From contig JABHTG010000134.1 of the NCBI GenBank assembly GCA_018697205.1, forward strand, positions 1 to 11,124: DNA of 11,124 bases. Direction: 5' to 3'. A program made the translations under genes and the position numbers. The notes beneath the pieces were generated by a model, which saw nothing but the letters and a program-made list of their open reading frames with translations, was not told the origin of the DNA and searched no databases. Positions 1 through 11,124 of this stretch are shown here, one piece after another. How positions within the stretch are numbered: position 1 is the stretch's first letter; every line of letters starts with the position of its first letter. The DNA comes from Nitrospina sp. (GTDB lineage Bacteria; Nitrospinota; Nitrospinia; Nitrospinales; VA-1).

Positions 1-71
1 CTAGATTAATATCACGCTTTCCTATTTCATAATAAGGAAAAACTGTTAACATTAAAATATAAAAACTATCT

Positions 72-76
72 AGGAG
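72..76 (+). promoter_or_regulatory. Shine-Dalgarno (AGGAG) 7 nt upstream of the SPFH gene ATG
   Basis: The AGGAG at 72-76 followed by ATG at 84 is read directly from the sequence. Confidence 0.5.
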
Positions 77-83
77 ATGGTAA

Positions 84-854
84 ATGGACGTTACCATAAT
101 CATTTTAATAATAGTTGGCCTGCTTCTTTTTAGCGCATTTAATGTTCTTAGAGAATATGAACGTGGAGTTATCTTTATGCTAGGTCGATACTGGAAAGTT
201 AAGGGACCTGGGCTCATCATAGTCATACCCGGAATTCAAAAAATCGTCAAAGTAAGCCTTCGCACAGTTGTAATGGACGTACCTCCCCAAGATATTATTA
301 CTCTAGACAATGTGACAGTTAAGGTTAACGCAGTTATATATTTTCGGGTAATGGACTCTAAGAAGGCTATCATAGAAGTCGAAGATTACCTTTACGCCAC
401 ATCCCAATTAGCCCAAACTACTCTACGAAGTATACTAGGTCAGAGTCAACTTGATGACCTTTTGTCTAAACGTGATGAAATCAACTCCCAACTTCAAAGA
501 GTGATTGACGAACAAACAGAACCATGGGGCGTTAAAGTTGCTAATGTTGAGGTTAAAAATGTTGATTTACCTCAAGAAATGCAGCGAGCCATAGCTAAAC
601 AGGCAGAAGCAGAGCGGGAACGACGTGCCAAAGTAATTAATGCCATGGGTGAGTTTGAAGCAGCGGAAAAATTAGGCCAAGCTGCAGATACTATAGGACA
701 GCATCCACCAGCGCTACAATTAAGATTTTTACAAACAATTTTAGACATCTCAACTGACCGAAACACAACCACCTTCTTCCCTCTCCCAATGGAACTTTTT
801 GAAGGATTTTACAAACAAAAACAATCTAAAAATGAGAACATAGATAGTAAATAA
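84..854 (+). CDS. SPFH/band-7 family membrane protein (stomatin/prohibitin-like, QmcA/YbbK type) with a single N-terminal TM anchor
   Basis: The N-terminal hydrophobic helix is [19 protein letters not shown]. The canonical SPFH core follows ([13 protein letters not shown]...[12 protein letters not shown]...[24 protein letters not shown]...[15 protein letters not shown]), and then an Ala/Glu/Arg-rich coiled-coil segment ([13 protein letters not shown]). A good SD lies upstream. Confidence 0.9.
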
Positions 855-945
855 GCCAGCTTTTTTCCGTTTATTTATGTTTTTAAGGAGGTCGTTTCCA
901 GCAAAGTAAAAGCTATAAATTAGTTCGCTATCTAAGTCTATTAAT

Positions 946-3900
946 ATGGAATCTCAAACAAAAATCCTAAACTTTCTGAATAGAGTTAGACGACTGCACT
1001 TTTATGCCCATACCCTCCAAGGAACCTATATCCTCCTAGCATATTTTACTGGAGCTGGTCTTTTAGGTTGTTTAATAGGGTTGAGCTATAAACCGGCTGA
1101 TGGATGGATTATTCCAGCAATAAGTTTTTTTTGCATAGGGTTGGTCTATATAGTTTACAAGTATTTCATCAAAATTCTAATCTCGCCGTTTTCCAATGAT
1201 GATGCAGCGCTACTTGCAGAGTCACGTTACCCAGAGGTAAATAACTCTCTCATAAATTCCTACCAATTAAGCAAACACCTTAAAGATTCGCATTTTAAAA
1301 ATACTATTTCCCTAAATTTAATCAAAGAGTTACACAAAAGAACAAGTAAAGAGCTAGACCAAATTGATCCAGCGTTATTAATCAGCCAAAGTAGTATAGT
1401 TTTTCATCGGAACTGGTTTTTTGGCATATTAGCGACGCTTGTACTAACAGTCATTTTTTTTCCCGAGCTTCTAACAAAGGGTTATGAAAATTGGGCTAAT
1501 CCTAGAATATTAGCTAAAACTGAACAAGATAAAATGGCTAATCAAAACCAGACAAAACCTAAGCTAGGTGCTGTCAATTACTCAATTGAATCTCTGGATT
1601 TAAATTTTCATTTTCCTTCATATACGCGAAAGAACTCTGAGCTAATAAAAAATTCTAAAGGAATAATCCATGTCCTACCTGGAACTGAAGTCAATATATC
1701 GGCTAAAACTAACACCAAGATAAATGGAGGAAATCTAATATTTAAAGGCAAAGACTCATTTGCCATGAAAAAAGAAAATAGTAAATACCTAAAGAGCAGT
1801 CTACTAGTCAAAGAAGGAGGGTTTTATCAGTTTAAAATTAAGGGTTCAGATGGTAGTGAGCAGCTGCTCGCAAAAAAATATCCAGTAACACTTGTTAAAG
1901 ATAACCCTCCTAACATTATTTTATTTTTAGCCAACCCTAGGCCAGTATATTTTCTCACTGATAAAGTTGAGTTGTTTTATGAAGGGAGTGATGATTTTGG
2001 CATAAATACAATAGATTTGGTTATTTCCATAAATGGAACAACAGAACGACTTCCAGTTAAAAAAAATAACAACCAAGAAAAGATGGCTAAAGGTAGTTAC
2101 ACCTGGTCTCTCGCGCAAATGTCTATAAATCCTGGCGATGAAGTTAATTACTATTTAGAAATTAATGATAATGATAATATTTTTGGCCCTAACAAAGGTC
2201 AGTCCGAGACCTACAGTTTTAAAATTTTTGACTCTGGAAAAGAGCTGGAAAACCTTGTTGAGATGCAAGAAGATCTTGTTGAAAAAATGATTGCTCTTCT
2301 AGCAACAGGACTAGTAAAAGGAGCATCTCTTAATAATCAACCAAACAACCTCATAGGCTGGAAAGAATTATTAACAGGCAATATTGATGAACTGATCAAA
2401 ATAGTAAGCCTTACACAGAAAGTTTACGACCGAGGAAAAGCAATTGATCAATTTCCTCAGAAATACTTAGACTTACTTAAAAATATTACCAGAGGATTAT
2501 CCCAAATTCGGAAAAATCAAATAAAATCTCTTAGTAACCTTCAAAGTCAAATTCATAAGCCCAACCAAGCAATACTAAAACTCATATCACCATACGCACC
2601 CGCCAATAATGAAATGACGGATCACCTCGAAAAAGATATTTTATTTTTAGTTAAAATGACCAATCAGCAAAAGATAACTAGAGCAAAGACTCTAGAGGAG
2701 GAGTTAAATGACCTCACCCAAAAACTACGAGAAGACTTAGAGAAATCCAACAACGAAAAAATTTCTAAAAACTCGAAAAAGTTAGTTGACAAAATAGATG
2801 AACTCCAAAAAGTTCTACAAAAATTGATGAACCAATTATCACGTCAGACGAATGGTACACCAGATGAGTTTTTAAACCCAGATGCCTTTAAGCGATTAAA
2901 TATTGAAAAGCTTTCTGATGCACTAAAAAAGATGCAGAATATGGTAAGCCGAGGAAAATTTGAAGAAGCTATAGAAGAATTAAAAAAAATGGAAGAAGAC
3001 CTCAAGCTTCTCGCGAATCAGATACATCGTGCTGACTCAGAAAAAGAAAGCTTTTTTGATCCAGAAACAATCAAAATAATAGATAGTAGTATCAAAAAAG
3101 TGGACAAATTAGAGAGGAGACAGCAGAAACTAGCAGAATCAACGACTCAAATAAACCAGGAGCTAAGAGAGCAGCAATCAAAAGCATTTGAAAACCAAAT
3201 TGACAAACTATTCAAGGGTCTACTCCTCGATATAGACTCAATCCGCAGTATTTTTAAAGAAGATGAAAAGTTCCTAGCAAGTCACAAAGCGATGAACCAA
3301 ATAAAGATTTTCATAGATAAAGAAATTGAGATGAAGAAAAAGATAAAACAATTAAGCCAAGCAACTGTCGATTTTTCAGGGTCAGAAAAACTAGACCAAA
3401 GCTTCACTAATCTTAAAGAAGCGCGCAATAAGCTCTCGGAGTTAATCGTAAAGAAAAGTTCACTTAATTTAGATGAGCCTCAGAAATTTAGAGAAACTCT
3501 ACCTCAAATACTTAAAAAATACGACTCCCTCAAAAAGCTGGCTAAGTTACAAGATCTTAATGAATTTAAAGATGTTTTCAAGCAGGCCTACCCAAATGTA
3601 TTGAGATGGCAGTATAAGATACGTACTACACCTAATCTCCGAAATGACATTTCAGACAAATTGGAAGAAGATTTAGCGCGAGTATCTCAGATAAATAACT
3701 CGATATCTAAAAAAATTGGTTCGATGGTACGCTCAATTAGAAAAAACTACAGTTCATCGATAACAAGGAATCAAAAAAAAGAATTAAAACAAATGGGAAA
3801 ACAGGAACAACAACTACAACAGGAAGTACAAAAACTGTCTAAGCAGTTTAATGAGTTAAGCAAAAAAAACCCAATGATACCCTCAGAGCTTTCACAAAGA

Positions 3901-4281
3901 ATGAAAAAAACCGCGCGTCATATGGAACAAGCGGCAACTAACCTTAAAGAACAAAATGTCCGCCAAAGTATCGAATCTGAAAACCAAGCCCTCAAAGGTC
4001 TAAACGAGACAAGCGACTTATTAAGGCAAATGAAAAGCTCTAACGGAGAAACGAAACAAGCAAAAAGACAAAATCCTCGAAAACTCGGGACTGGCAGCAG
4101 CCCAGATTCTCGACGAGGTAGTGCGTCACGAATGAAAAAAGAACACGTGCGACTCCCAGATGAAACCCAGTATAAAGCACCAAAAGAATTCCGCGAAGAA
4201 ATATTAAACGCAATGAAAAAACAAGCGCCTAAAAACTACGAACGTATGATTATGGAATATTATAAGGATCTAGTGCAGTGA
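946..4281 (+). CDS. Giant (1111 aa) membrane-anchored coiled-coil protein of unknown function. It has three N-terminal TM helices, a beta-rich module and a ~600-aa K/E/Q-rich coiled coil; the architecture is reminiscent of DUF4175/TIGR02302-like proteins
   Basis: The ORF is long and uninterrupted. Hydrophobic helices sit at aa ~27-46, 54-79 and 157-176 (nt ~1021-1473). A beta-strand-like region spans aa ~200-430. A heptad-like Lys/Glu/Gln-rich region spans nt ~2233-4066. There is a basic Arg/Ser-rich tail (RQNPRKLGTGSSPDSRRGSASR) and a conserved-looking C-terminus (YERMIMEYYKDL). The family assignment is from memory and not verified. Confidence 0.75.
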   Translation: MESQTKILNFLNRVRRLHFYAHTLQGTYILLAYFTGAGLLGCLIGLSYKPADGWIIPAISFFCIGLVYIVYKYFIKILISPFSNDDAALLAESRYPEVNNSLINSYQLSKHLKDSHFKNTISLNLIKELHKRTSKELDQIDPALLISQSSIVFHRNWFFGILATLVLTVIFFPELLTKGYENWANPRILAKTEQDKMANQNQTKPKLGAVNYSIESLDLNFHFPSYTRKNSELIKNSKGIIHVLPGTEVNISAKTNTKINGGNLIFKGKDSFAMKKENSKYLKSSLLVKEGGFYQFKIKGSDGSEQLLAKKYPVTLVKDNPPNIILFLANPRPVYFLTDKVELFYEGSDDFGINTIDLVISINGTTERLPVKKNNNQEKMAKGSYTWSLAQMSINPGDEVNYYLEINDNDNIFGPNKGQSETYSFKIFDSGKELENLVEMQEDLVEKMIALLATGLVKGASLNNQPNNLIGWKELLTGNIDELIKIVSLTQKVYDRGKAIDQFPQKYLDLLKNITRGLSQIRKNQIKSLSNLQSQIHKPNQAILKLISPYAPANNEMTDHLEKDILFLVKMTNQQKITRAKTLEEELNDLTQKLREDLEKSNNEKISKNSKKLVDKIDELQKVLQKLMNQLSRQTNGTPDEFLNPDAFKRLNIEKLSDALKKMQNMVSRGKFEEAIEELKKMEEDLKLLANQIHRADSEKESFFDPETIKIIDSSIKKVDKLERRQQKLAESTTQINQELREQQSKAFENQIDKLFKGLLLDIDSIRSIFKEDEKFLASHKAMNQIKIFIDKEIEMKKKIKQLSQATVDFSGSEKLDQSFTNLKEARNKLSELIVKKSSLNLDEPQKFRETLPQILKKYDSLKKLAKLQDLNEFKDVFKQAYPNVLRWQYKIRTTPNLRNDISDKLEEDLARVSQINNSISKKIGSMVRSIRKNYSSSITRNQKKELKQMGKQEQQLQQEVQKLSKQFNELSKKNPMIPSELSQRMKKTARHMEQAATNLKEQNVRQSIESENQALKGLNETSDLLRQMKSSNGETKQAKRQNPRKLGTGSSPDSRRGSASRMKKEHVRLPDETQYKAPKEFREEILNAMKKQAPKNYERMIMEYYKDLVQ

Positions 4282-5846
4282 AACATATGTTTTTTATAAT
4301 AAGTACTTGCCTGATTGGATTCAATTTAATCCCCCCACTTATTACATCAGCAATTGGGTTGCCTCAAAAAGAGATATATGCAGGGCACAAACTAATAGAT
4401 AAATGGAATACTAATGCAGCAGAGCAATATGCAAACAACTTACTTAAAAAGTATCCTAAATCAGGAGATGTATATTTCCTTAAAGCGCGCATAGAATTTT
4501 TAAAAGGAAACCATGAAATAGCCTGGGAAATTCTAAAACAAGTAAATAGTAACCATAAAGAAGTACGCGAATTCAAAAACCTCATCTACAACACCTACGA
4601 AGAAACAAAACTATTTACAACAAGCGAATCAAAACATTTTATCTACCGCTATCAAAAAGGACCGGATGAAATACTAGTTCATTATGCTACCCAAGCTATG
4701 GAAAAATCTTATGAGGTTCTAGGAAACATTTTAAATTACTATCCAAAAGAAAAAGTTTTAGTTGAGTTCTATCCGAACCAAAAATCCTTATCTAAAGTTT
4801 CTCCGTTAACTCTTGATGATATAACTACCTCCGGCACAGTCGCTCTCTGTAAATACAATCGAATTATGATTATCTCCCCAGGATCTTTAGTCCGCGGTTA
4901 CAATTGGATGGACACCTTGAGCCACGAATATATTCACTACATACTGACTAAGAAAAGCCAAAACAACCTACCTTTATGGTTACATGAGGGAATAGCAAAG
5001 TATTACGAAGCACGATGGAGAAATAAACACGAATACTTATCGCCCATCATGGAAACAATGCTTGCGGGAGGACTACAAGAAAACTATCTAATATCATTAG
5101 AGAATATGATGCCTTCGCTGGCAAAGCTAAAAACAGCCGAGGATGTTCAACTTGCTTATGCTGAAGTTTCTACAATGATTGAATACATTACCAAAGTTCA
5201 TGGAGATAAAATAATTTCAACTCTTCTGGAAAGATTGGCAAGAGAAGAAACATTTGAATCTGTAATATATACAACTCTAGGAACAAACCTAGATATAATT
5301 CAGGAAAATTGGAAGCACTTTGTAAAACAAAAACAACTCAAAATTATTCCAAGACTCAAGCCGCCAGGAGTTTATTTTAAAACAGACCGTTCGTCTAAAG
5401 AGCCAAGCAAAGAATATCGTGAAATTGATAATAGGAAGAGTCGAGACCTAATATTTTTAGGTGACGTTTTAAAATCAAGGAACTTTTATAAAGCAGCTCT
5501 TATCGAATATCAACGTGCGATCGAACAATCAAAAAATTTCTCCCCCCAACTCCATAACAAACTAGCCAAGACTCATCTAATCACCAGGGAATATAACAAA
5601 GCCAAAGTTATCCTAAATAGAAGCTTACATTACTATCCTATGTTTCACTCTACCCTTGCAAGTTTAGGTGAATTATATTTTGATCTAGGAAAAATAGAAA
5701 AATCTCGGACTTTCTATGAACGAGCGATTAAAATTAACCCTTTCAATCCTTTTGTTCATATGCGACTAATAACGATCTACCAAAAACTAGGGTGGAAAAA
5801 AGAAAAAGCATTACAGGTAAAACTTGCCGGCTATATAAACCACTAA
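4278..5846 (+). CDS. Secreted or periplasmic TPR-repeat protein with a gluzincin-like (peptidase MA-type) HExxH...E zinc-binding motif; putative metalloprotease
   Basis: The start codon GTG at 4278 overlaps the upstream TGA stop (GTGA); an alternative ATG lies at 4287. The N-terminal hydrophobic signal or anchor is FFIISTCLIGFNLIPPLI. A TPR-like helix pair is near the N-terminus, and HEYIH sits at nt 4923-4937 with the downstream Glu at 4986-4988 (WLHEG). C-terminal TPR repeats follow (YKAALIEYQRAIE..., LGELYFDLGKIEKSRTFYERAIKINP). Confidence 0.7.
   Translation: MKHMFFIISTCLIGFNLIPPLITSAIGLPQKEIYAGHKLIDKWNTNAAEQYANNLLKKYPKSGDVYFLKARIEFLKGNHEIAWEILKQVNSNHKEVREFKNLIYNTYEETKLFTTSESKHFIYRYQKGPDEILVHYATQAMEKSYEVLGNILNYYPKEKVLVEFYPNQKSLSKVSPLTLDDITTSGTVALCKYNRIMIISPGSLVRGYNWMDTLSHEYIHYILTKKSQNNLPLWLHEGIAKYYEARWRNKHEYLSPIMETMLAGGLQENYLISLENMMPSLAKLKTAEDVQLAYAEVSTMIEYITKVHGDKIISTLLERLAREETFESVIYTTLGTNLDIIQENWKHFVKQKQLKIIPRLKPPGVYFKTDRSSKEPSKEYREIDNRKSRDLIFLGDVLKSRNFYKAALIEYQRAIEQSKNFSPQLHNKLAKTHLITREYNKAKVILNRSLHYYPMFHSTLASLGELYFDLGKIEKSRTFYERAIKINPFNPFVHMRLITIYQKLGWKKEKALQVKLAGYINH
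4923..4988 (+). other. HExxH + downstream E zincin signature (HEYIH x16 E) inside the TPR protein
   Basis: The motif is read directly from the translation: H216-E217-x-x-H220 ... E237. Confidence 0.6.
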
Positions 5847-5870
5847 TTAACCTTTCAATTAAAACGTAGA

Positions 5871-6860
5871 ATGACTACAAACTTAGAACTAGTAAAAGAG
5901 TTAGTGGATTCCAAAAGTCTCATCATAAAAGAAATTCGTAAAGTGATCGTAGGACAAGACGACGTACTAGAAGATTTGCTGGTAGCTCTTTTTTGCAAAG
6001 GGCATTGCCTTTTTGTTGGTGTCCCCGGCTTGGCAAAAACACTACTTGTAAAAACTCTAGCGAGGGTACTAAACCTTAGTTTTAGTAGAATACAATTTAC
6101 TCCTGACCTGATGCCTTCAGATATTACAGGAACAGATATACTTTATGAAGATCACACAACCAACAAAAGGGGTTTTCGCTTTATAAAAGGTCCGATTTTT
6201 TCAAATATTGTTTTAGCCGATGAAATAAATCGAACCCCACCTAAGACGCAAGCCGCGCTGCTCCAGGCGATGCAGGAACAGCAGGTAACCGTTGGTGGAA
6301 ATACCTATGAACTAGATCAACCTTTTCTAGTTTTTGCGACACAAAATCCCATTGAGCACGAAGGTACTTACCCCTTACCTGAAGCACAACTCGACCGTTT
6401 TATGTTCATAATAAATGTAGGTTATCCTACAATGAAACAAGAAGTGAGAATTGCGATGACCACTACTTCTGGAATACACCCAGAAATGAATATGGTGTTA
6501 AATGCAAAACAGGTGAAAGATTTTCAAAGGCTAGTGCCATGCGTTCCAGTTTCAGAGCATGTCGCTGAGTATGCAGTAAGGCTAGCGCAAAGTTCACGTC
6601 CAAGTAAAAATGGTAGTACTCCCGACTTTATAAACGAGTGGGTTGATTGGGGAGCTGGACCTCGTGCTTCTCAATATCTCCTAATGGGGGCAAAAGCACG
6701 CGCCCTAATGGACAATAGAGTCGCTGCAACTATCGAAGATGTTAAACGTGTAACCCGCCAAGTCCTTGAACACAGAATCATACTTAACTTCAAGGCCAAA
6801 GCCGAAAATATCACCACAAATGATATCATCGAAAAACTTTTAAAATCAATCAAGGCATAA
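5871..6860 (+). CDS. MoxR-family AAA+ ATPase (AAA_3 / MRP subfamily)
   Basis: Walker A GVPGLAKT sits at nt 6018-6041 and Walker B is VLADEINR. The MoxR-diagnostic stretch is PPKTQAALLQAMQEQQVTVGG...FLVFATQNPIEHEGTYPLPEAQLDRF. The length (329 aa) is typical. Confidence 0.92.
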   Translation: MTTNLELVKELVDSKSLIIKEIRKVIVGQDDVLEDLLVALFCKGHCLFVGVPGLAKTLLVKTLARVLNLSFSRIQFTPDLMPSDITGTDILYEDHTTNKRGFRFIKGPIFSNIVLADEINRTPPKTQAALLQAMQEQQVTVGGNTYELDQPFLVFATQNPIEHEGTYPLPEAQLDRFMFIINVGYPTMKQEVRIAMTTTSGIHPEMNMVLNAKQVKDFQRLVPCVPVSEHVAEYAVRLAQSSRPSKNGSTPDFINEWVDWGAGPRASQYLLMGAKARALMDNRVAATIEDVKRVTRQVLEHRIILNFKAKAENITTNDIIEKLLKSIKA

Positions 6861-6861
6861 A

Positions 6862-7500
6862 CTAGGAAGGGCTAATTAGGCCGGCTGTTTTCCAATCAAC
6901 TTTCAACTCTTTAACTACCCCTGAGCGAGTACAATATTTCACATGACCATGTGATTCGCCATACAGAAACAAATCTCGGGTAATCTCAACATCTTGTTTG
7001 CAGTACTCAATAATCTTGTCTATTTTTCCTTCTTTATACCATTGCAAAGAAACCAAACCGTCAGCACTTTTTTTTGCATTCAGTGAGTTTTCTGCTAAAT
7101 GATTAAGGCTAAGTCTGTGGTTAAGTTTGGCCTTAATATCGTCCAACATGTCAAAAGTAGCTATTTCATTAAGGTCAAAATCAGCGTATGGCTGCAATAC
7201 AGTATAATCAAATTTTTTCACATTAAACCCCACAACCAGATCGGCTTTACTAAGTTTTTCGACTAACTGGGAAGCCTCGCTTTCAAGGTAGCTAAAATGC
7301 TTTTGCTCAACACTGTCCCACACTACACCCACAGCAAGCCCCATAAGGTGAATATTTCCCCACCCTCCAACGTCGTCAGCGCTTTTTTGAGTTTCCAAGT
7401 CAAAATAAAGCACACGATACGAATTCAACGCTTTAGGGATAGTTTTAGGCTCTATTTTATTCTTTATGGGGTCTTCAAACAGGTCCAACTGCTCTGACAT
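6862..7500 (-). CDS. DEDDy-type 3'-5' exonuclease (DnaQ/RNase D/PolB-exo-like fold), standalone 212 aa
   Basis: Exo I is FDLET (D34, E36). Exo II is FNVKKFD (D98). Exo III is YCKQD (Y166-x3-D170). These are read from the reverse-strand translation. Confidence 0.7.
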   Translation of the reverse strand: MSEQLDLFEDPIKNKIEPKTIPKALNSYRVLYFDLETQKSADDVGGWGNIHLMGLAVGVVWDSVEQKHFSYLESEASQLVEKLSKADLVVGFNVKKFDYTVLQPYADFDLNEIATFDMLDDIKAKLNHRLSLNHLAENSLNAKKSADGLVSLQWYKEGKIDKIIEYCKQDVEITRDLFLYGESHGHVKYCTRSGVVKELKVDWKTAGLISPS

Positions 7501-7707
7501 ATCGCACTAACTCCAAATATTAATACCGTTCACGGCGGCTCAAAGGACATAGTTTTAATTGAACTTGATAACTCTAGCACTCCCCAGAATCAAATCAAGA
7601 AAAACAACTTAACATCAAATAAAATAAACCCTTAGATAAAATTTTTTAAAACTCTTTAAAGCTACGACCAATCGGTTAAAAACAATCACCTAAACCCTTG
7701 AAATCAA

Positions 7708-7736
7708 TTAAAGATATGATTTTTAGAAACCGATAA
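7708..7736 (+). promoter_or_regulatory. Candidate sigma-28 (FliA) class-III flagellar promoter upstream of fliD
   Basis: TAAA at 7709-7712 and ACCGATAA at 7729-7736 compare with the consensus TAAA-N15-GCCGATAA; the spacing here is 16. The element lies ~57 nt upstream of the fliD ATG. Confidence 0.4.
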
Positions 7737-7792
7737 AATCTATGAAGAGAATTGGTGAAAACATTCCCACCTAAAAGGGTCCAATATATTTT

Positions 7793-9415
7793 ATGGCACA
7801 AAACGCAGTATTTGGCATAAATTCTAATCTAGACACTCAGGATATCATCAATAAGATGGTTTCACTGGAAGCTCGGTCGATGGATCTTATCGAAGCCAAA
7901 AAACAAATAGAGCAGCAAAAGTTGTCTAGTTTTCAGGAATTAAAAAATAGGTTACAAACGTTCAAAAGCGTTGTAACCACATTAAATACCGAAAGCCGCT
8001 TTATAGTTAATAAAAGCTCTTTTTCAAATAGCAGCTCTTCAGACAGCAATAAAGTCGTAGATATAACTACCACCAGTTCAGCAACTTCTGGCACATATTC
8101 ACTAATAGTTAATAACCTAGCTACTGAAACAAAAATTATTTCAGAAGGCTTTCCTACTACTACTTCAGAAGTAACAATGAGTAGCTTAGTTGTCACCGTT
8201 GGCGGAGTTGCAAAAACAATTAATGTCGATAGTTCAAATAATACGGTAGATGGCCTAAGGCTAGCTATTAACAACCTAGGGCTTGATGTGAAGGCATCTT
8301 TTTTAAATGATGGCGATGATACTAATCCAATTCGACTTCTTATTTCGGGTAATTTAACTGGAGCAAGCGGGGCTGTAACGGTGGTTAATCCTGTTAGTGG
8401 AATAGGAACAGGAGCATTATCAGGTATAGACTTCAAAACAAAACAATATGCCCAAAATGCTAGTTTTACAATAGATGGTGTTGCTGTTAGTAAATCGTCT
8501 AATACTGTTTCAGACGTTATTAGCGGCGCGGCCTTAAAGCTGCAATCAGCTGGTTCAGGAACTATCTCTCTTTCCACAGATACAGATGCGATAACCAGCA
8601 AAGTCTCTGACTTTGTAGATGAATACAATGAAATTTCTTTATTCCTTCGTGAACAGCTAGCGTTAGATCCAGAGTCTGAGGAGACGGGTGTGTTATTTGG
8701 CAATTTTGCCGTACAAAATTTACAACAAATCCTTCGAAGTTCAATAAGTAGTGAAGTAACTGGTATTAGCGGTGACTATAAATACCTTTCGCAAATCGGT
8801 ATTACCACTGAGTCAGACGGGTCTCTAGTTTTAGATACCGATGACCTTTCTGAAGCATTAATAGACGACATACAGAATGTAAGCCAGCTGTTTTCGAGTA
8901 AAGGAACCGTAACACATTCATCTGTAGCTTATGTCGGCTTCACTAGCGATACAGAGCCGGGATACTACGACTTAAAAGTAGCTAACGGAGTCCCTCAACT
9001 GAGTAACTCAGGGGCCGCTACCTTTGTGAACGCTTCCGGATCTGGAAATTTTTGGGCAGGTTCCTCAGGAGATGCAACTGGCCTTAACTTTCGTATCAGT
9101 AATTTATCTAATGGTGATTATGGACAAGTATGGCTATCAATCGGAGTCGCAGAAATTCTTAATCGCCAGTTGGAGAATATGGTTGACTCTTCATTAAATG
9201 GCCCCTTGGTCACAGAAGTTGACACGATCACCGAGACAGTTGACGATTTCAATATAACACTACTTAACCAAGCAGAACGTCTACTTGAATTCGAAGAAAG
9301 CCTTAAAGCAAAATTTTCCAACTTAGAAATTGTCCTGGGAAGACTTAACGCACAAAGAGATACCTTTAATAGCTCTTTAGCAGGAATTCAAAATATTTTC
9401 TCTCAGAAAAAATAA
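7793..9415 (+). CDS. fliD: Flagellar filament cap protein FliD (hook-associated protein 2)
   Basis: The N-terminal FliD_N-like segment is GINSNLDTQDIINKMVSLEARSMDLIEAKKQIEQQKLSSFQELKNRLQTFKSVVTTLN. The central domain is Ser/Thr-rich and variable. The C-terminal FliD_C-like helix is KAKFSNLEIVLGRLNAQRDTFNSSLAGIQ. Confidence 0.9.
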   Translation: MAQNAVFGINSNLDTQDIINKMVSLEARSMDLIEAKKQIEQQKLSSFQELKNRLQTFKSVVTTLNTESRFIVNKSSFSNSSSSDSNKVVDITTTSSATSGTYSLIVNNLATETKIISEGFPTTTSEVTMSSLVVTVGGVAKTINVDSSNNTVDGLRLAINNLGLDVKASFLNDGDDTNPIRLLISGNLTGASGAVTVVNPVSGIGTGALSGIDFKTKQYAQNASFTIDGVAVSKSSNTVSDVISGAALKLQSAGSGTISLSTDTDAITSKVSDFVDEYNEISLFLREQLALDPESEETGVLFGNFAVQNLQQILRSSISSEVTGISGDYKYLSQIGITTESDGSLVLDTDDLSEALIDDIQNVSQLFSSKGTVTHSSVAYVGFTSDTEPGYYDLKVANGVPQLSNSGAATFVNASGSGNFWAGSSGDATGLNFRISNLSNGDYGQVWLSIGVAEILNRQLENMVDSSLNGPLVTEVDTITETVDDFNITLLNQAERLLEFEESLKAKFSNLEIVLGRLNAQRDTFNSSLAGIQNIFSQKK

Positions 9416-9448
9416 CAACTAATATTTTTCATAAAAAAAAATTCAAAT

Positions 9449-9895
9449 ATGGTTAAGCATAGATTTCATAAAGAATATCATAAAAACGAAATAGCTACTT
9501 CCAGCCAGGCTAAACTAATCGTCATGATGTACGAAGGTGCCTTAAAATTCGTAAATTTGGCTATCGAGGGAATTGACAATCACGACCTATCAAAAAAAGG
9601 GAAATATATCAATAAAACTCACGATATCATAAATGAGCTGTCGTGTGCTTTAGACATGAAAAAAGGTGGTGAGGTGTCCCAAAAACTTGAATCGCTTTAT
9701 CAATTTATTCTTCATCAATTAACCCTAGCTAATATTAAATCAGATCGTAAAACTCTCGAGTCGATAGTAAGTGTTATCACACCACTAATGGAAGCTTGGA
9801 AAGAATTATTAGTGAAAAAGAATACTAACGACAAAGGCAATAGCCACCAAAACATATCTACCCAGCCACACAAAAAGATCGCATCAAAATGTTGA
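9449..9895 (+). CDS. fliS: Flagellin-specific export chaperone FliS
   Basis: The protein is 148 aa. Conserved FliS blocks are LIVMMYEGALKFVNLAIEGI, KGKYINKTHDIINELSCALDMKKGGEVSQKLESLYQFILHQL and PLMEAWKEL. It lies immediately downstream of fliD, with a 33-nt gap. Confidence 0.9.
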   Translation: MVKHRFHKEYHKNEIATSSQAKLIVMMYEGALKFVNLAIEGIDNHDLSKKGKYINKTHDIINELSCALDMKKGGEVSQKLESLYQFILHQLTLANIKSDRKTLESIVSVITPLMEAWKELLVKKNTNDKGNSHQNISTQPHKKIASKC

Positions 9896-10010
9896 CAAAG
9901 CTTACCTATACTTAGTTTTATTTTTTCCCCTTTCTATTATTCTTAAACCTAAGTTTTATTAAATTAATACTACCTTTCCCAAATAGAACCAAATACCGAT
10001 AGATTATTTT

Positions 10011-10039
10011 TTGACAAGGCATACGAGCTATGATAAAAA
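10011..10039 (+). promoter_or_regulatory. Sigma-70-like promoter candidate (TTGACA-N17-TAAAAT) upstream of sucC
   Basis: TTGACA at 10011-10016, a 17-nt spacer and TAAAAT at 10034-10039 lie ~54 nt upstream of the sucC ATG. Confidence 0.35.
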
Positions 10040-10092
10040 TTTTCTTCTGCGTGCAAACTTTATCGTCTTTAATTTTTTTTATTTTTTGAATC

Positions 10093-11124
10093 ATGAATAT
10101 TCACGAATATCAGGCAAAGGAAGTCCTTGCAAAACACGGTGTAGCTGTTCCTAAGGGTGTAGTCATCGATAACCCAGATAAAGCAGAAGATGTTTCTCGC
10201 CAACTAGGAACAGATGTTGTCGTAGTAAAAGCCCAAATTCATGCTGGAGGACGAGGTAAAGGCGGAGGAGTTAAGCTTGCCAATAGCCCAAAAGAAGCCA
10301 AAGTTCATGCAAAAAAAATAATAGGAATGCAATTAGTAACACCCCAAACTGGAACAGAGGGCCGAAAGGTCAAAAAGATTCTAATAGAAGAAGGTATGCC
10401 TATTGATAAAGAACTCTATCTAGGCATCCTTCTGGATAGGCAGAGTAGTCGTGTAATGATTATGGCAAGCGAAGCTGGCGGTATGGCAATCGAAGAGGTC
10501 GCCGAAGAAACTCCGGAAAAAATTATCAAAGAAATAATCGACCCTATTATTGGAGTTAAACCTTATCTAGCTAGAAAAATAGCATTTGCTCTCAATGTAA
10601 AAGGAAACGCTCTTAAACAAATGATTCCTTTAATAATCAATCTTTATCAGGCTTTTCTTAAAGAAGATTGCGATATGCTAGAAATCAACCCTCTTGTCAT
10701 AACAAAAGACGAACGAGTCCTTGTCCTTGATGCAAAAGTTAATATTGACAGTAATGCCCTCTACCGCCAAAAAGAAATTCTTGCATACCGAGATCTAGAT
10801 GAAGAAGATCCCATGGAAGTGGAAGCCAGTAAATTCGACTTAAACTATATTAAACTTGATGGAAATATTGGTTGTATGGTCAATGGGGCTGGCTTAGCCA
10901 TGGCAACTATGGACATAATCAAACATTCAGGTGGCGAACCCGCGAACTTCTTGGATGTTGGAGGCGGAGCTGATGAGGAAAAAATTGAAAATGGATTTCG
11001 CATTCTACTATCAGACCCGCATGTAAAAGGAATATTTATTAATATATTTGGCGGCATTTTACGTTGTGACATTCTGGCTCGAGGTGTTGAGATCGCAGCC
11101 AAAAAACTAAAAGTAAAAATCCCA
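10093..11124 (+). CDS. sucC: Succinyl-CoA synthetase (ADP-forming) beta subunit, 5' partial (344 codons, runs off the window end)
   Basis: The product begins [22 protein letters not shown]...[20 protein letters not shown] and includes the ATP-grasp region. [17 protein letters not shown]...NFLDVGGGA and [13 protein letters not shown] are diagnostic of SucC. The ORF is not in the six-frame track because there is no stop within the window. Confidence 0.9.

Follow-up and report, generated by a model that had tools for sequence, protein, structure and literature searches.

A MoxR ATPase without adjoining DUF58 and VWA genes is conserved beside a DUF4175 membrane protein and a TPR-flanked zinc peptidase in Nitrospinota

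We analysed a stretch of 11,124 nucleotides (nt) from Nitrospina sp. (assembly GCA_018697205.1, contig JABHTG010000134.1, positions 1 to 11,124; hereafter, the window), which encodes a MoxR-family AAA+ ATPase without the DUF58 and VWA-domain genes that are its canonical partners. The 11.1-kb window has a GC content of ~36% and carries four consecutive plus-strand genes: one for an SPFH protein, one for a giant DUF4175-family membrane protein of 1111 amino acids (aa; positions 946–4281), one for a 522-aa protein in which a gluzincin peptidase domain (Peptidase_MA_2) is flanked by TPR domains (4278–5846), and one for a 329-aa MoxR of the MRP (MoxR-proper) type (5871–6860). The MoxR stop codon (TAA) occupies positions 6858–6860, and the open reading frame (ORF) of a convergent exonuclease ends at 6862, which leaves a gap of a single nucleotide. 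A preliminary description of the window had reported this close convergence as well as the two large genes upstream of moxR, and had proposed that the TPR protein or the giant protein might serve as a non-canonical client or adaptor of the ATPase. Both aspects of the layout were confirmed; the proposal itself is taken up below.

As judged from its sequence, the ORF at 5871–6860 is an intact MRP-type MoxR. It matched the Pfam families AAA_3 (E 5.5e-63; 211 bits, cut-off 27) and AAA_lid_2 (E 5.6e-16)—the combination of AAA_3-type AAA+ core and lid domain typical of the MRP subfamily—and its nearest solved structure is PDB 2R44 (E 2.6e-80). The Walker A (GVPGLAKT), Walker B (LADEINR) and sensor-1 (ATQNP) motifs as well as DRF and GAGPRAS, each assigned by inspection, are all present and are conserved across 35 Nitrospinota and 46 other sequences, with Walker A/B, sensor 1, arginine finger and sensor 2 all intact. 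The protein has neither a transmembrane (TM) segment nor a signal. Another mark of MRP proteins, an adjoining DUF58 gene together with one or more VWA genes (Snider & Houry 2006, as cited in PMC12067865), is missing from the window MoxR, yet is found with its relatives at 57–65% identity. Measured directly against DUF58-linked MoxRs of Brocadiales, Neomarinimicrobiota and the long-form loci introduced below, the window protein is 61–65% identical. It is not a RavA: the NCBIfam RavA model gave E 0.0044 and 16 bits against a cut-off of 681, the protein comprises only 329 aa, and neither a LARA domain nor ViaA accompanies it.

The gene directly upstream of moxR is coupled to that of the giant, its GTG start codon overlapping the TGA stop of the latter (GTGA); an in-frame ATG lies 9 nt downstream. 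Its product matched Pfam Peptidase_MA_2 (53.3 bits, cut-off 32.4) as well as TPR families, with no Pfam match to M48. In the AlphaFold2 (AF2) model (predicted local distance difference test score, pLDDT, 88.4; predicted template modelling score 0.89), a TPR region at residues 30–110 is followed by the gluzincin domain at 113–350—composed of a beta-sheet N-subdomain (113–199) and helices (210–350)—and by a second TPR region at 386–521. Foldseek matched this model to TPR proteins, collagenase T (4ar9) and tricorn factor F3 (1z1w). The zinc motif HEYIH spans residues 216–220, and the glutamate of a downstream HEGIAKY motif is E237; H216, E217, H220 and E237 do not vary among 54 close homologues, nor do their equivalents among 61 distant ones. 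With its HExxH motif, downstream glutamate ligand and thermolysin-like fold, the protein belongs to clan MA (gluzincins) and is a predicted peptidase. A signal-like helix at residues 4–26 is of the Sec-like type, with no twin arginine.

The preliminary description had called the product of 946–4281 a giant coiled-coil protein. It is in fact a DUF4175-family (PF13779) membrane protein with three TM helices, two beta-sandwich domains and a long helical region, matching the Pfam model in three stretches (67.6 bits, cut-off 27.3; E 8.2e-19). Several basic residues precede the first TM helix at the N-terminus, and the hydropathy profile places the TM helices at residues ~26–48, 54–76 and 156–176. 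Between the TM segments, residues 77–155 form a conserved helical loop (consensus FSxDxAALLxExKYPxLNNSLINSxQL). According to the AF2 model (built from 47 sequences; mean pLDDT 79.8) and its DSSP assignment, two beta-sandwich domains of the Ig/MG-like kind (214–316 and 323–427) precede an all-helical region (430–1032). The C-terminal part consists of a basic, disordered linker predicted with low confidence and a conserved tail (1051–1111). Foldseek against PDB matched the beta region to complement C3 MG, Ig and FN3 domains. A word-seeded search recovered orthologues (at least 37% identity) from Nitrospinota only, plus one distant match, P0334. The locus of P0334 (L092) encodes, in order, a VWA-like 791-aa protein, DUF4159, the DUF4175-like giant, a 339-aa protein and a Band_7 protein, and this gene order ties giants of this type to Bat/cmd-type genes. 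In the DUF4175 literature, the sole bacterial case that we found was AdvA of A. baumannii, whose match is short and N-terminal and uninformative here.

We also considered a defence-system reading of the locus and rejected it. The window MoxR does not belong to the MoxR-VWA conflict systems (bpMoxR ternary type), as the bpMoxR match reached 36 bits versus 211 bits for AAA_3. PADLOC returned weak and non-specific matches only (DolB, E 1e-4; ZorA, E 1.8e-5), and no VWA or effector gene lies near. The second of these matches, between the tail of ZorA and the helical residues 719–1028 of the giant, we read as coiled-coil composition, not homology.

Could either upstream protein conceal a VWA domain? 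The preliminary description had pointed to a DxSxS match in the giant (DFSGS, positions 3370–3384, aa 809–813) as lying outside a VWA beta-strand context, and had named a cryptic VWA fold in the 1111-aa or 522-aa protein as evidence that would speak against its proposal. Indeed, DFSGS occupies a loop between helices 781–809 and 816–839 of the giant model and is not a metal-ion-dependent adhesion site; it is poorly conserved, with S813 present in 29 of 84 giant orthologues and any DxSxS in 19 of 84 giants and eight of 119 peptidases. DSSP of the AF2 models revealed no alpha/beta domain of the VWA kind, the giant being all-beta at 214–427 and all-helical at 430–1032 and the peptidase consisting of its TPR, gluzincin and TPR parts. 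Foldseek matches of both proteins in PDB include no VWA domain, and hhalign comparisons of both families with DUF58 and BatA profiles gave probabilities of 0.1–0.2%, while the control comparison of DUF58 with BatA reached E 1e-3 over the VWA region. On these four counts we ruled out a cryptic VWA in either protein, which leaves the idea that they are clients untouched.

The lack of DUF58 and VWA genes beside this MoxR, likewise remarked upon in the preliminary description, proved to be common to the Nitrospinota loci covered here. Among the window ORFs, Pfam searches gave no DUF58 or VWA match. A MoxR scan of a species-dereplicated genome collection yielded 34 Nitrospinota species loci and 46 related loci from Brocadiales, other Planctomycetota and Neomarinimicrobiota; with 11 metagenome contigs, the Nitrospinota set rises to 45 loci. 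DUF58 and BatA/VWA hidden Markov models (HMMs) built from the 46 non-Nitrospinota loci matched nothing in these 45 loci (ORFs of at least 70 aa, up to 10 kb on each side), and repeating the search with a cleaned DUF58 HMM gave the same result. DUF4159 and GATase1_like were also not found around the cassette (~20 kb) in the 45 loci, nor was DUF58 in 24 further Nitrospinota-like contigs. Neither the window nor any Nitrospinota locus thus has the composition of a Bat/cmd-type operon (MoxR, DUF58 and BatA_N/VWA, plus DUF4159 and GATase1_like). Outside the phylum, 37 of the 46 loci carry an ORF, mostly of ~301 aa, directly 3′ of moxR; all four of those scanned with Pfam are DUF58, and a BatA_N+VWA gene (~710 aa) comes next in three Brocadiales/Planctomycetota loci. 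The canonical partner set is therefore the norm for the clade of the window MoxR, and Nitrospinota depart from it. With up to 10 kb covered on each side, and with DUF58 directly downstream of the closest non-Nitrospinota MoxRs, the absence in Nitrospinota is a real departure and no artefact of the window edge.

What Nitrospinota keep instead is the order giant, peptidase, MoxR, observed in all 34 species loci and in the 11 metagenome contigs. A 4-nt overlap joins the giant gene to the peptidase gene in 31 of 31 loci, and the interval between peptidase and MoxR genes ranges from −4 to 92 nt in 33 of 34. Clustering of the neighbouring ORFs distinguished at least five upstream contexts and several downstream variants, among them the exonuclease right after moxR, insertions of DUF8220, DCC1-like and HTTM genes, a transposase with methyltransferases, and an inversion of a block around the cassette (L023). 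This constancy of order and tight coupling amid varied flanks argue for a three-gene operon under selection, not for passive synteny. The question raised in the preliminary description of whether this MoxR clade might routinely occur without conserved neighbours can accordingly be answered: giant and peptidase are conserved beside it.

The same trio extends far beyond the phylum. A profile search with the peptidase alignment gave 689 clusters (50% identity) at E ≤ 1e-30, of which the top 150, essentially without exception, are close to full length and share this architecture; by the names of cluster members, the family occurs in Nitrospinota, Planctomycetia/Brocadiales, metagenome-assembled genomes (MAGs) labelled ‘Deltaproteobacteria’, and Limnocylindrales. 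Scanning metagenome contigs with 60 distant peptidase representatives (~30–41% identity to the first sequence of the alignment) plus the window peptidase returned 80 loci with GC contents of 38–71%. According to HMM annotation, nearly every scanned locus with enough sequence—many of them clearly non-Nitrospinota—has giant, peptidase and MoxR in this order. DUF58 follows MoxR directly in 14 non-Nitrospinota trio loci (E 1e-19 to 1e-119), mostly with BatA next, while 11 other non-Nitrospinota loci with at least 1.5 kb of sequence past MoxR show no DUF58. In one locus (L096), a MoxR fragment lies right after the peptidase (7020–7550) and a second one ~2 kb further on (9671–9949), which suggests an insertion or frameshift within moxR.

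The fullest version of the operon was resolved with Pfam in locus L168. There, seven co-directional genes encode a DUF4175 protein (1054 aa), a TPR+Peptidase_MA_2 protein (521 aa), an AAA_3 MoxR (341 aa), DUF58 (295 aa), a BatA_N+VWA protein (659 aa; BatA plus VWA_2), DUF4159 (257 aa) and GATase1_like (730 aa). All are overlapping or separated by very short gaps, the MoxR and DUF58 genes overlapping by 4 nt, and the giant matches DUF4175 model positions 183–752 of 825 (E 3.9e-23). Six such long-form loci have a DUF4159-like ORF after BatA, followed in five of them by a GATase1-like ORF. The giants encoded there are homologous to the window giant over their full length (E 1e-72 to 1e-156) and share its four-part layout.

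In a neighbour-joining tree of MoxR, long forms, short forms and the MoxRs of Brocadiales MoxR–DUF58–BatA loci are intermixed within one clade, 57–65% identical to the window protein. Short forms occupy three places: Nitrospinota; a group that we call clade A (L106, L115, L131/132, L137, L142/169 and L160/161), whose peptidases cluster with one from a Deltaproteobacteria MAG; and L148, which falls among the long forms. This pattern is most simply read as a modular system—giant and peptidase on one side, MoxR in the centre, DUF58, BatA, DUF4159 and GATase1_like on the other—from whose MoxR either flank has repeatedly become detached. In clade A (L106, L115, L131, L142 and L160), moxR is followed by a convergent minus-strand gene of ~520–527 aa; the one in L142 encodes an M-type subunit of the NADH:quinone oxidoreductase/Mrp antiporter kind (Proton_antipo_M), and in L142 and L160 this ORF overlaps the 3′ end of moxR by ~60 nt.

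Several known systems resemble parts of this arrangement. The Rhizobium leguminosarum cmd operon (RL3499–RL3502), whose mutants are described in accounts of Vanderlinde et al. 2011 (via PMC5700661 and PMC5118466) as having envelope and cell-morphology defects, reads MoxR, DUF58, BatA_N…DUF4159 and GATase1_like. Its MRP-type MoxR is 44% identical to that of the window, and the long-form relatives share its DUF58, BatA_N+VWA, DUF4159 and GATase1_like genes. It differs in having no upstream DUF4175 giant or TPR-peptidase—a divergent DUF1285 gene is found there—whereas the window has both and none of the four downstream genes. The Bat operons of Bacteroides and spirochaetes, associated with aerotolerance, are organised as MoxR, DUF58, BatA/BatB VWA, BatC TPR, BatD and BatE. 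They, too, combine a MoxR with membrane-anchored, envelope-facing proteins, including TPR proteins and large beta-sandwich membrane proteins, and the function of the Bat system is unknown (PMC5700661). Unlike them, the window has no DUF58/VWA in cis, its TPR protein bears a gluzincin domain, its large protein is of the DUF4175 family and not BatD, and the order is reversed, with accessory genes upstream of moxR.

A third parallel is the mycobacterial ripAB–moxR1–DUF58–VWA locus, in which MoxR1 is reported to chaperone secreted RipA for export by the twin-arginine translocation (Tat) system (PMC12067865, citing Bhuwan et al. 2016). Here as in the window, secreted-peptidase genes stand directly upstream of an MRP MoxR, with a proposed client relation between the two. 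RipA, however, is an NlpC/P60 cysteine peptidase with a Tat signal, as opposed to a TPR-flanked zinc gluzincin with a Sec-like one, and the mycobacterial locus retains DUF58 and VWA. The E. coli MoxR–VWA pair RavA–ViaA shares the AAA+ MoxR family but represents another subfamily, the window having neither LARA nor ViaA. As an analogy only, we mention BepA, a periplasmic M48 zinc protease with a TPR domain that acts in outer-membrane protein quality control. Like the window protein, which is predicted to be periplasmic, it joins an HExxH metalloprotease to TPRs, yet it comes from a different family than the Peptidase_MA_2 protein of the window and is not known to be linked to MoxR or DUF4175.

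Taken together, the Nitrospinota locus is very probably the short form of the seven-gene operon, with giant and peptidase as conserved co-components. Within a MoxR system of the Bat/cmd-like kind, both are co-components or candidate clients and do not stand in for VWA proteins: since the same trio runs into DUF58—and, in the fullest loci, BatA_N+VWA, DUF4159 and GATase1_like—in other lineages, giant and peptidase coexist with the canonical partners and do not replace them. Of the original client-or-adaptor proposal, conserved partnership thus stands (34 of 34 species loci, as well as distant lineages), while replacement of VWA/DUF58 is not supported, given the 14 loci in which DUF58 follows the trio.

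How might such a system work? The giant would be anchored in the inner membrane by its three TM helices with the N-terminus in the cytoplasm, as the basic residues before the first helix and the presence of three TM segments suggest an N-in, C-out topology. Its ~80-aa loop (77–155) would lie on the cytoplasmic side of the membrane, with the beta-sandwich, helical and C-tail regions in the periplasm. The putatively Sec-exported TPR-zinc-peptidase would partner the giant in the periplasm; its signal-like N-terminus and the translational coupling to the giant gene point to a probable periplasmic/inner-membrane complex. MoxR, having neither TM segment nor signal, must act from the cytoplasm, where the cytoplasmic face of the giant is the obvious contact: through it, a MoxR hexamer might use ATP to assemble, remodel or gate the giant–peptidase complex. 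Where the long form is present, DUF58 and the membrane VWA protein may also be involved. By analogy with cmd and Bat (envelope integrity, morphology and stress tolerance) and with ripAB–moxR1, the function could be envelope maintenance or quality control. As a whole—operon and mechanism blended—we consider this the probable explanation of the locus, while the specific docking and remodelling mechanism is put forward tentatively.

A number of observations weigh against this explanation. For the metagenome loci, breadth is claimed from their GC content, the divergence of their sequences and a small number of MAG names, and the MoxR tree is a rough neighbour-joining one rooted with alphaproteobacterial sequences. 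Giant and peptidase occur without an adjacent MoxR in L100 (5493–10560) and L143 (5513–10950), none being found within ~9 kb; in L101–L105, a peptidase was found with no giant or MoxR detected in the available sequence; and MoxR–DUF58–BatA loci of Brocadiales have no giant or peptidase beside them. That the modules are found apart indicates that they are separable and their linkage not obligatory. The giant’s 77–155 loop, the presumed contact site, is only moderately conserved (majority fraction 0.55–0.63; 10–25% identity with distant giants). Lastly, we infer the topology of the giant, its contact with MoxR and the envelope function from the data above. Among the loci without MoxR, the peptidase of L143 is longer (716 aa), those of L100–L105 are closest to the Planctomycetia/Brocadiales cluster, and Brocadiales may keep giant/peptidase and MoxR–DUF58–BatA at separate loci.

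The leading alternative, to which we assign slightly less than an even chance, is that the operon has been split: DUF58, BatA/VWA, DUF4159 and GATase1_like would reside at another locus of the Nitrospinota genomes, and MoxR would act canonically with them in trans. The separability just described fits such a scenario, Brocadiales MAGs encoding the peptidase family even though their MoxR–DUF58–BatA genes stand without it; L100 has giant and peptidase without MoxR, and L092 combines VWA, DUF4159 and giant in another order with no MoxR within 10 kb. Moreover, the Nitrospinota MoxR and giant have no added domain able to replace an adaptor, and the 4-nt overlap of MoxR and DUF58 genes in L168 points to DUF58 as a stoichiometric partner not easily lost. 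The searches around the 45 Nitrospinota cassettes and in the 24 further contigs, however, recovered none of the genes sought, and some Nitrospinales chromosomes are small (2.3–3.3 Mb), which makes outright loss plausible.

Outright loss is the basis of a second alternative, in which Nitrospinota and, independently, the second short-form clade dispensed with DUF58/VWA and their MoxR engages the cytoplasmic domain of the giant directly; this amounts to a strong version of what the preliminary description had proposed. Short forms have arisen at least twice in the MoxR tree (Nitrospinota and clade A), with L148 in addition, and moxR is the last gene of the operon in both short clades, facing a convergent gene. 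Furthermore, a possible signature of lost DUF58 contact lies in MoxR just upstream of sensor 1, in what we take to be the pre-sensor-1 beta-hairpin: positions 137, 141 and 150 show at least 92% conservation among 60 DUF58-linked MoxRs, and the two short clades depart from them. This pattern is not strict, though: Y/A/L is retained in the short-form L148 and A141 in L044 of Nitrospinota, and the DUF58-linked MoxRs of alphaproteobacteria diverge as well, so that the signature may be phylogenetic. Given also that no compensating domain was found in giant or peptidase, we deem an adaptor-free MoxR somewhat unlikely. Synteny without function, with MoxR beside giant and peptidase through inherited order and acting on unrelated clients, is extremely improbable: other Nitrospinota neighbours (exonuclease, FliD/FliS and citryl-CoA synthetase) are indeed widely syntenic with no obvious functional link, and cassette components do occur apart in some lineages, but the trio is kept where peptidases share 30–46% identity, GC content spans 38–71% and all other surroundings differ, its genes overlap or lie within a few nucleotides in short and long forms alike, and no other Nitrospinota neighbour follows the cassette into other lineages.

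MRP-type MoxR/DUF58/VWA operons such as Bat and cmd are widespread and have been linked to aerotolerance, stress tolerance and envelope integrity, with clients and mechanism undefined. Against this background, genes for a DUF4175 giant and a TPR-flanked zinc peptidase accompany one large MoxR clade time and again, across several lineages, with or without the DUF58/VWA half. Our literature search found no description of a MoxR–DUF4175–TPR-gluzincin linkage; that the two proteins recur as partners of this MoxR clade had gone unremarked. Comparative genomics thus offers two concrete candidates for clients or co-components of a chaperone system that has long been an enigma, and the three-gene Nitrospinota cassette is a natural minimal system for asking whether VWA adaptors are needed. 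The boldest version of the idea strikes us as unlikely: an MRP MoxR with no DUF58/VWA adaptor whatsoever, in Nitrospinota and independently in the ‘Deltaproteobacteria’-named clade, would dock on the DUF4175 loop and control a periplasmic TPR-zinc-peptidase, and, more broadly, Bat/cmd-type MoxR systems would have their long-sought physiological client in the pair of DUF4175 protein and TPR-gluzincin. Nitrospinota are the main marine nitrite oxidisers, and a candidate envelope module conserved phylum-wide is of ecological interest in view of that role.

Of the genes flanking the trio, the SPFH/Band_7 membrane protein gene (84–854, plus strand; Pfam Band_7, E 6.4e-38) was considered as a fourth core component and rejected, because it forms the adjacent upstream cluster in only about one-third of the 34 Nitrospinota species loci (12 members); it was not detected next to non-Nitrospinota cassettes. 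Following the block inversion in L023, an SPFH gene (11044–11799) lies convergent just past moxR, and in L092 a Band_7 gene (14938–15783) is located two genes downstream of the P0334 giant-like gene; there may be a loose association between SPFH and DUF4175. The convergent gene at 6862–7500 (minus strand) encodes a 212-aa 3′-5′ exonuclease of the DnaQ/RNase H-like kind (Pfam DNA_pol_A_exo1 and RNase_H_2). It follows moxR in 31 of 34 Nitrospinota loci, sometimes with insertions between, and is absent from the loci of other lineages; we therefore dismissed it as a partner and regard it as a synteny neighbour within Nitrospinota, at which the cassette ends on its 3′ side.

In some Nitrospinales (L010, 12664–15335, identical to L029; and L027), genes for DUF8220, a DCC1-like thiol-disulfide oxidoreductase, a hypothetical protein and an HTTM (vitamin-K-carboxylase-like) protein lie between moxR and the exonuclease gene. 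In one complete Nitrospinales genome (L011/L034, ~12600–19600), there is no fliD/fliS at the corresponding position; an IS1595 transposase fragment, two N6/N4 DNA methyltransferases and a ResIII helicase are found instead, in what looks like an inserted restriction-modification/defence island.

Rfam, tRNA and promoter/terminator scans of the window gave nothing informative. Past the exonuclease gene come fliD, fliS and the start of a further gene, which homologous contigs mark as citryl-CoA-synthetase-type. Related contigs differ in the start assigned to FliS (9449–9895), giving a protein of either 148 or 154 aa, and positions ~10093–11124 apparently fall, by offset from L001, inside the gene for the citryl-CoA synthetase large subunit (ATP-grasp_2/Citrate_synth_N). 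Beyond the window, identical or related contigs (~10 kb on each side) add MetRS, a TatD/radical-SAM gene, DUF423 and a hypothetical gene upstream, and continue downstream from FliD/FliS into citryl-CoA synthetase and POR genes. In homologous contigs, the citryl-CoA synthetase small subunit and the POR genes come next, forming a reductive tricarboxylic acid cycle set that fits Nitrospinota.

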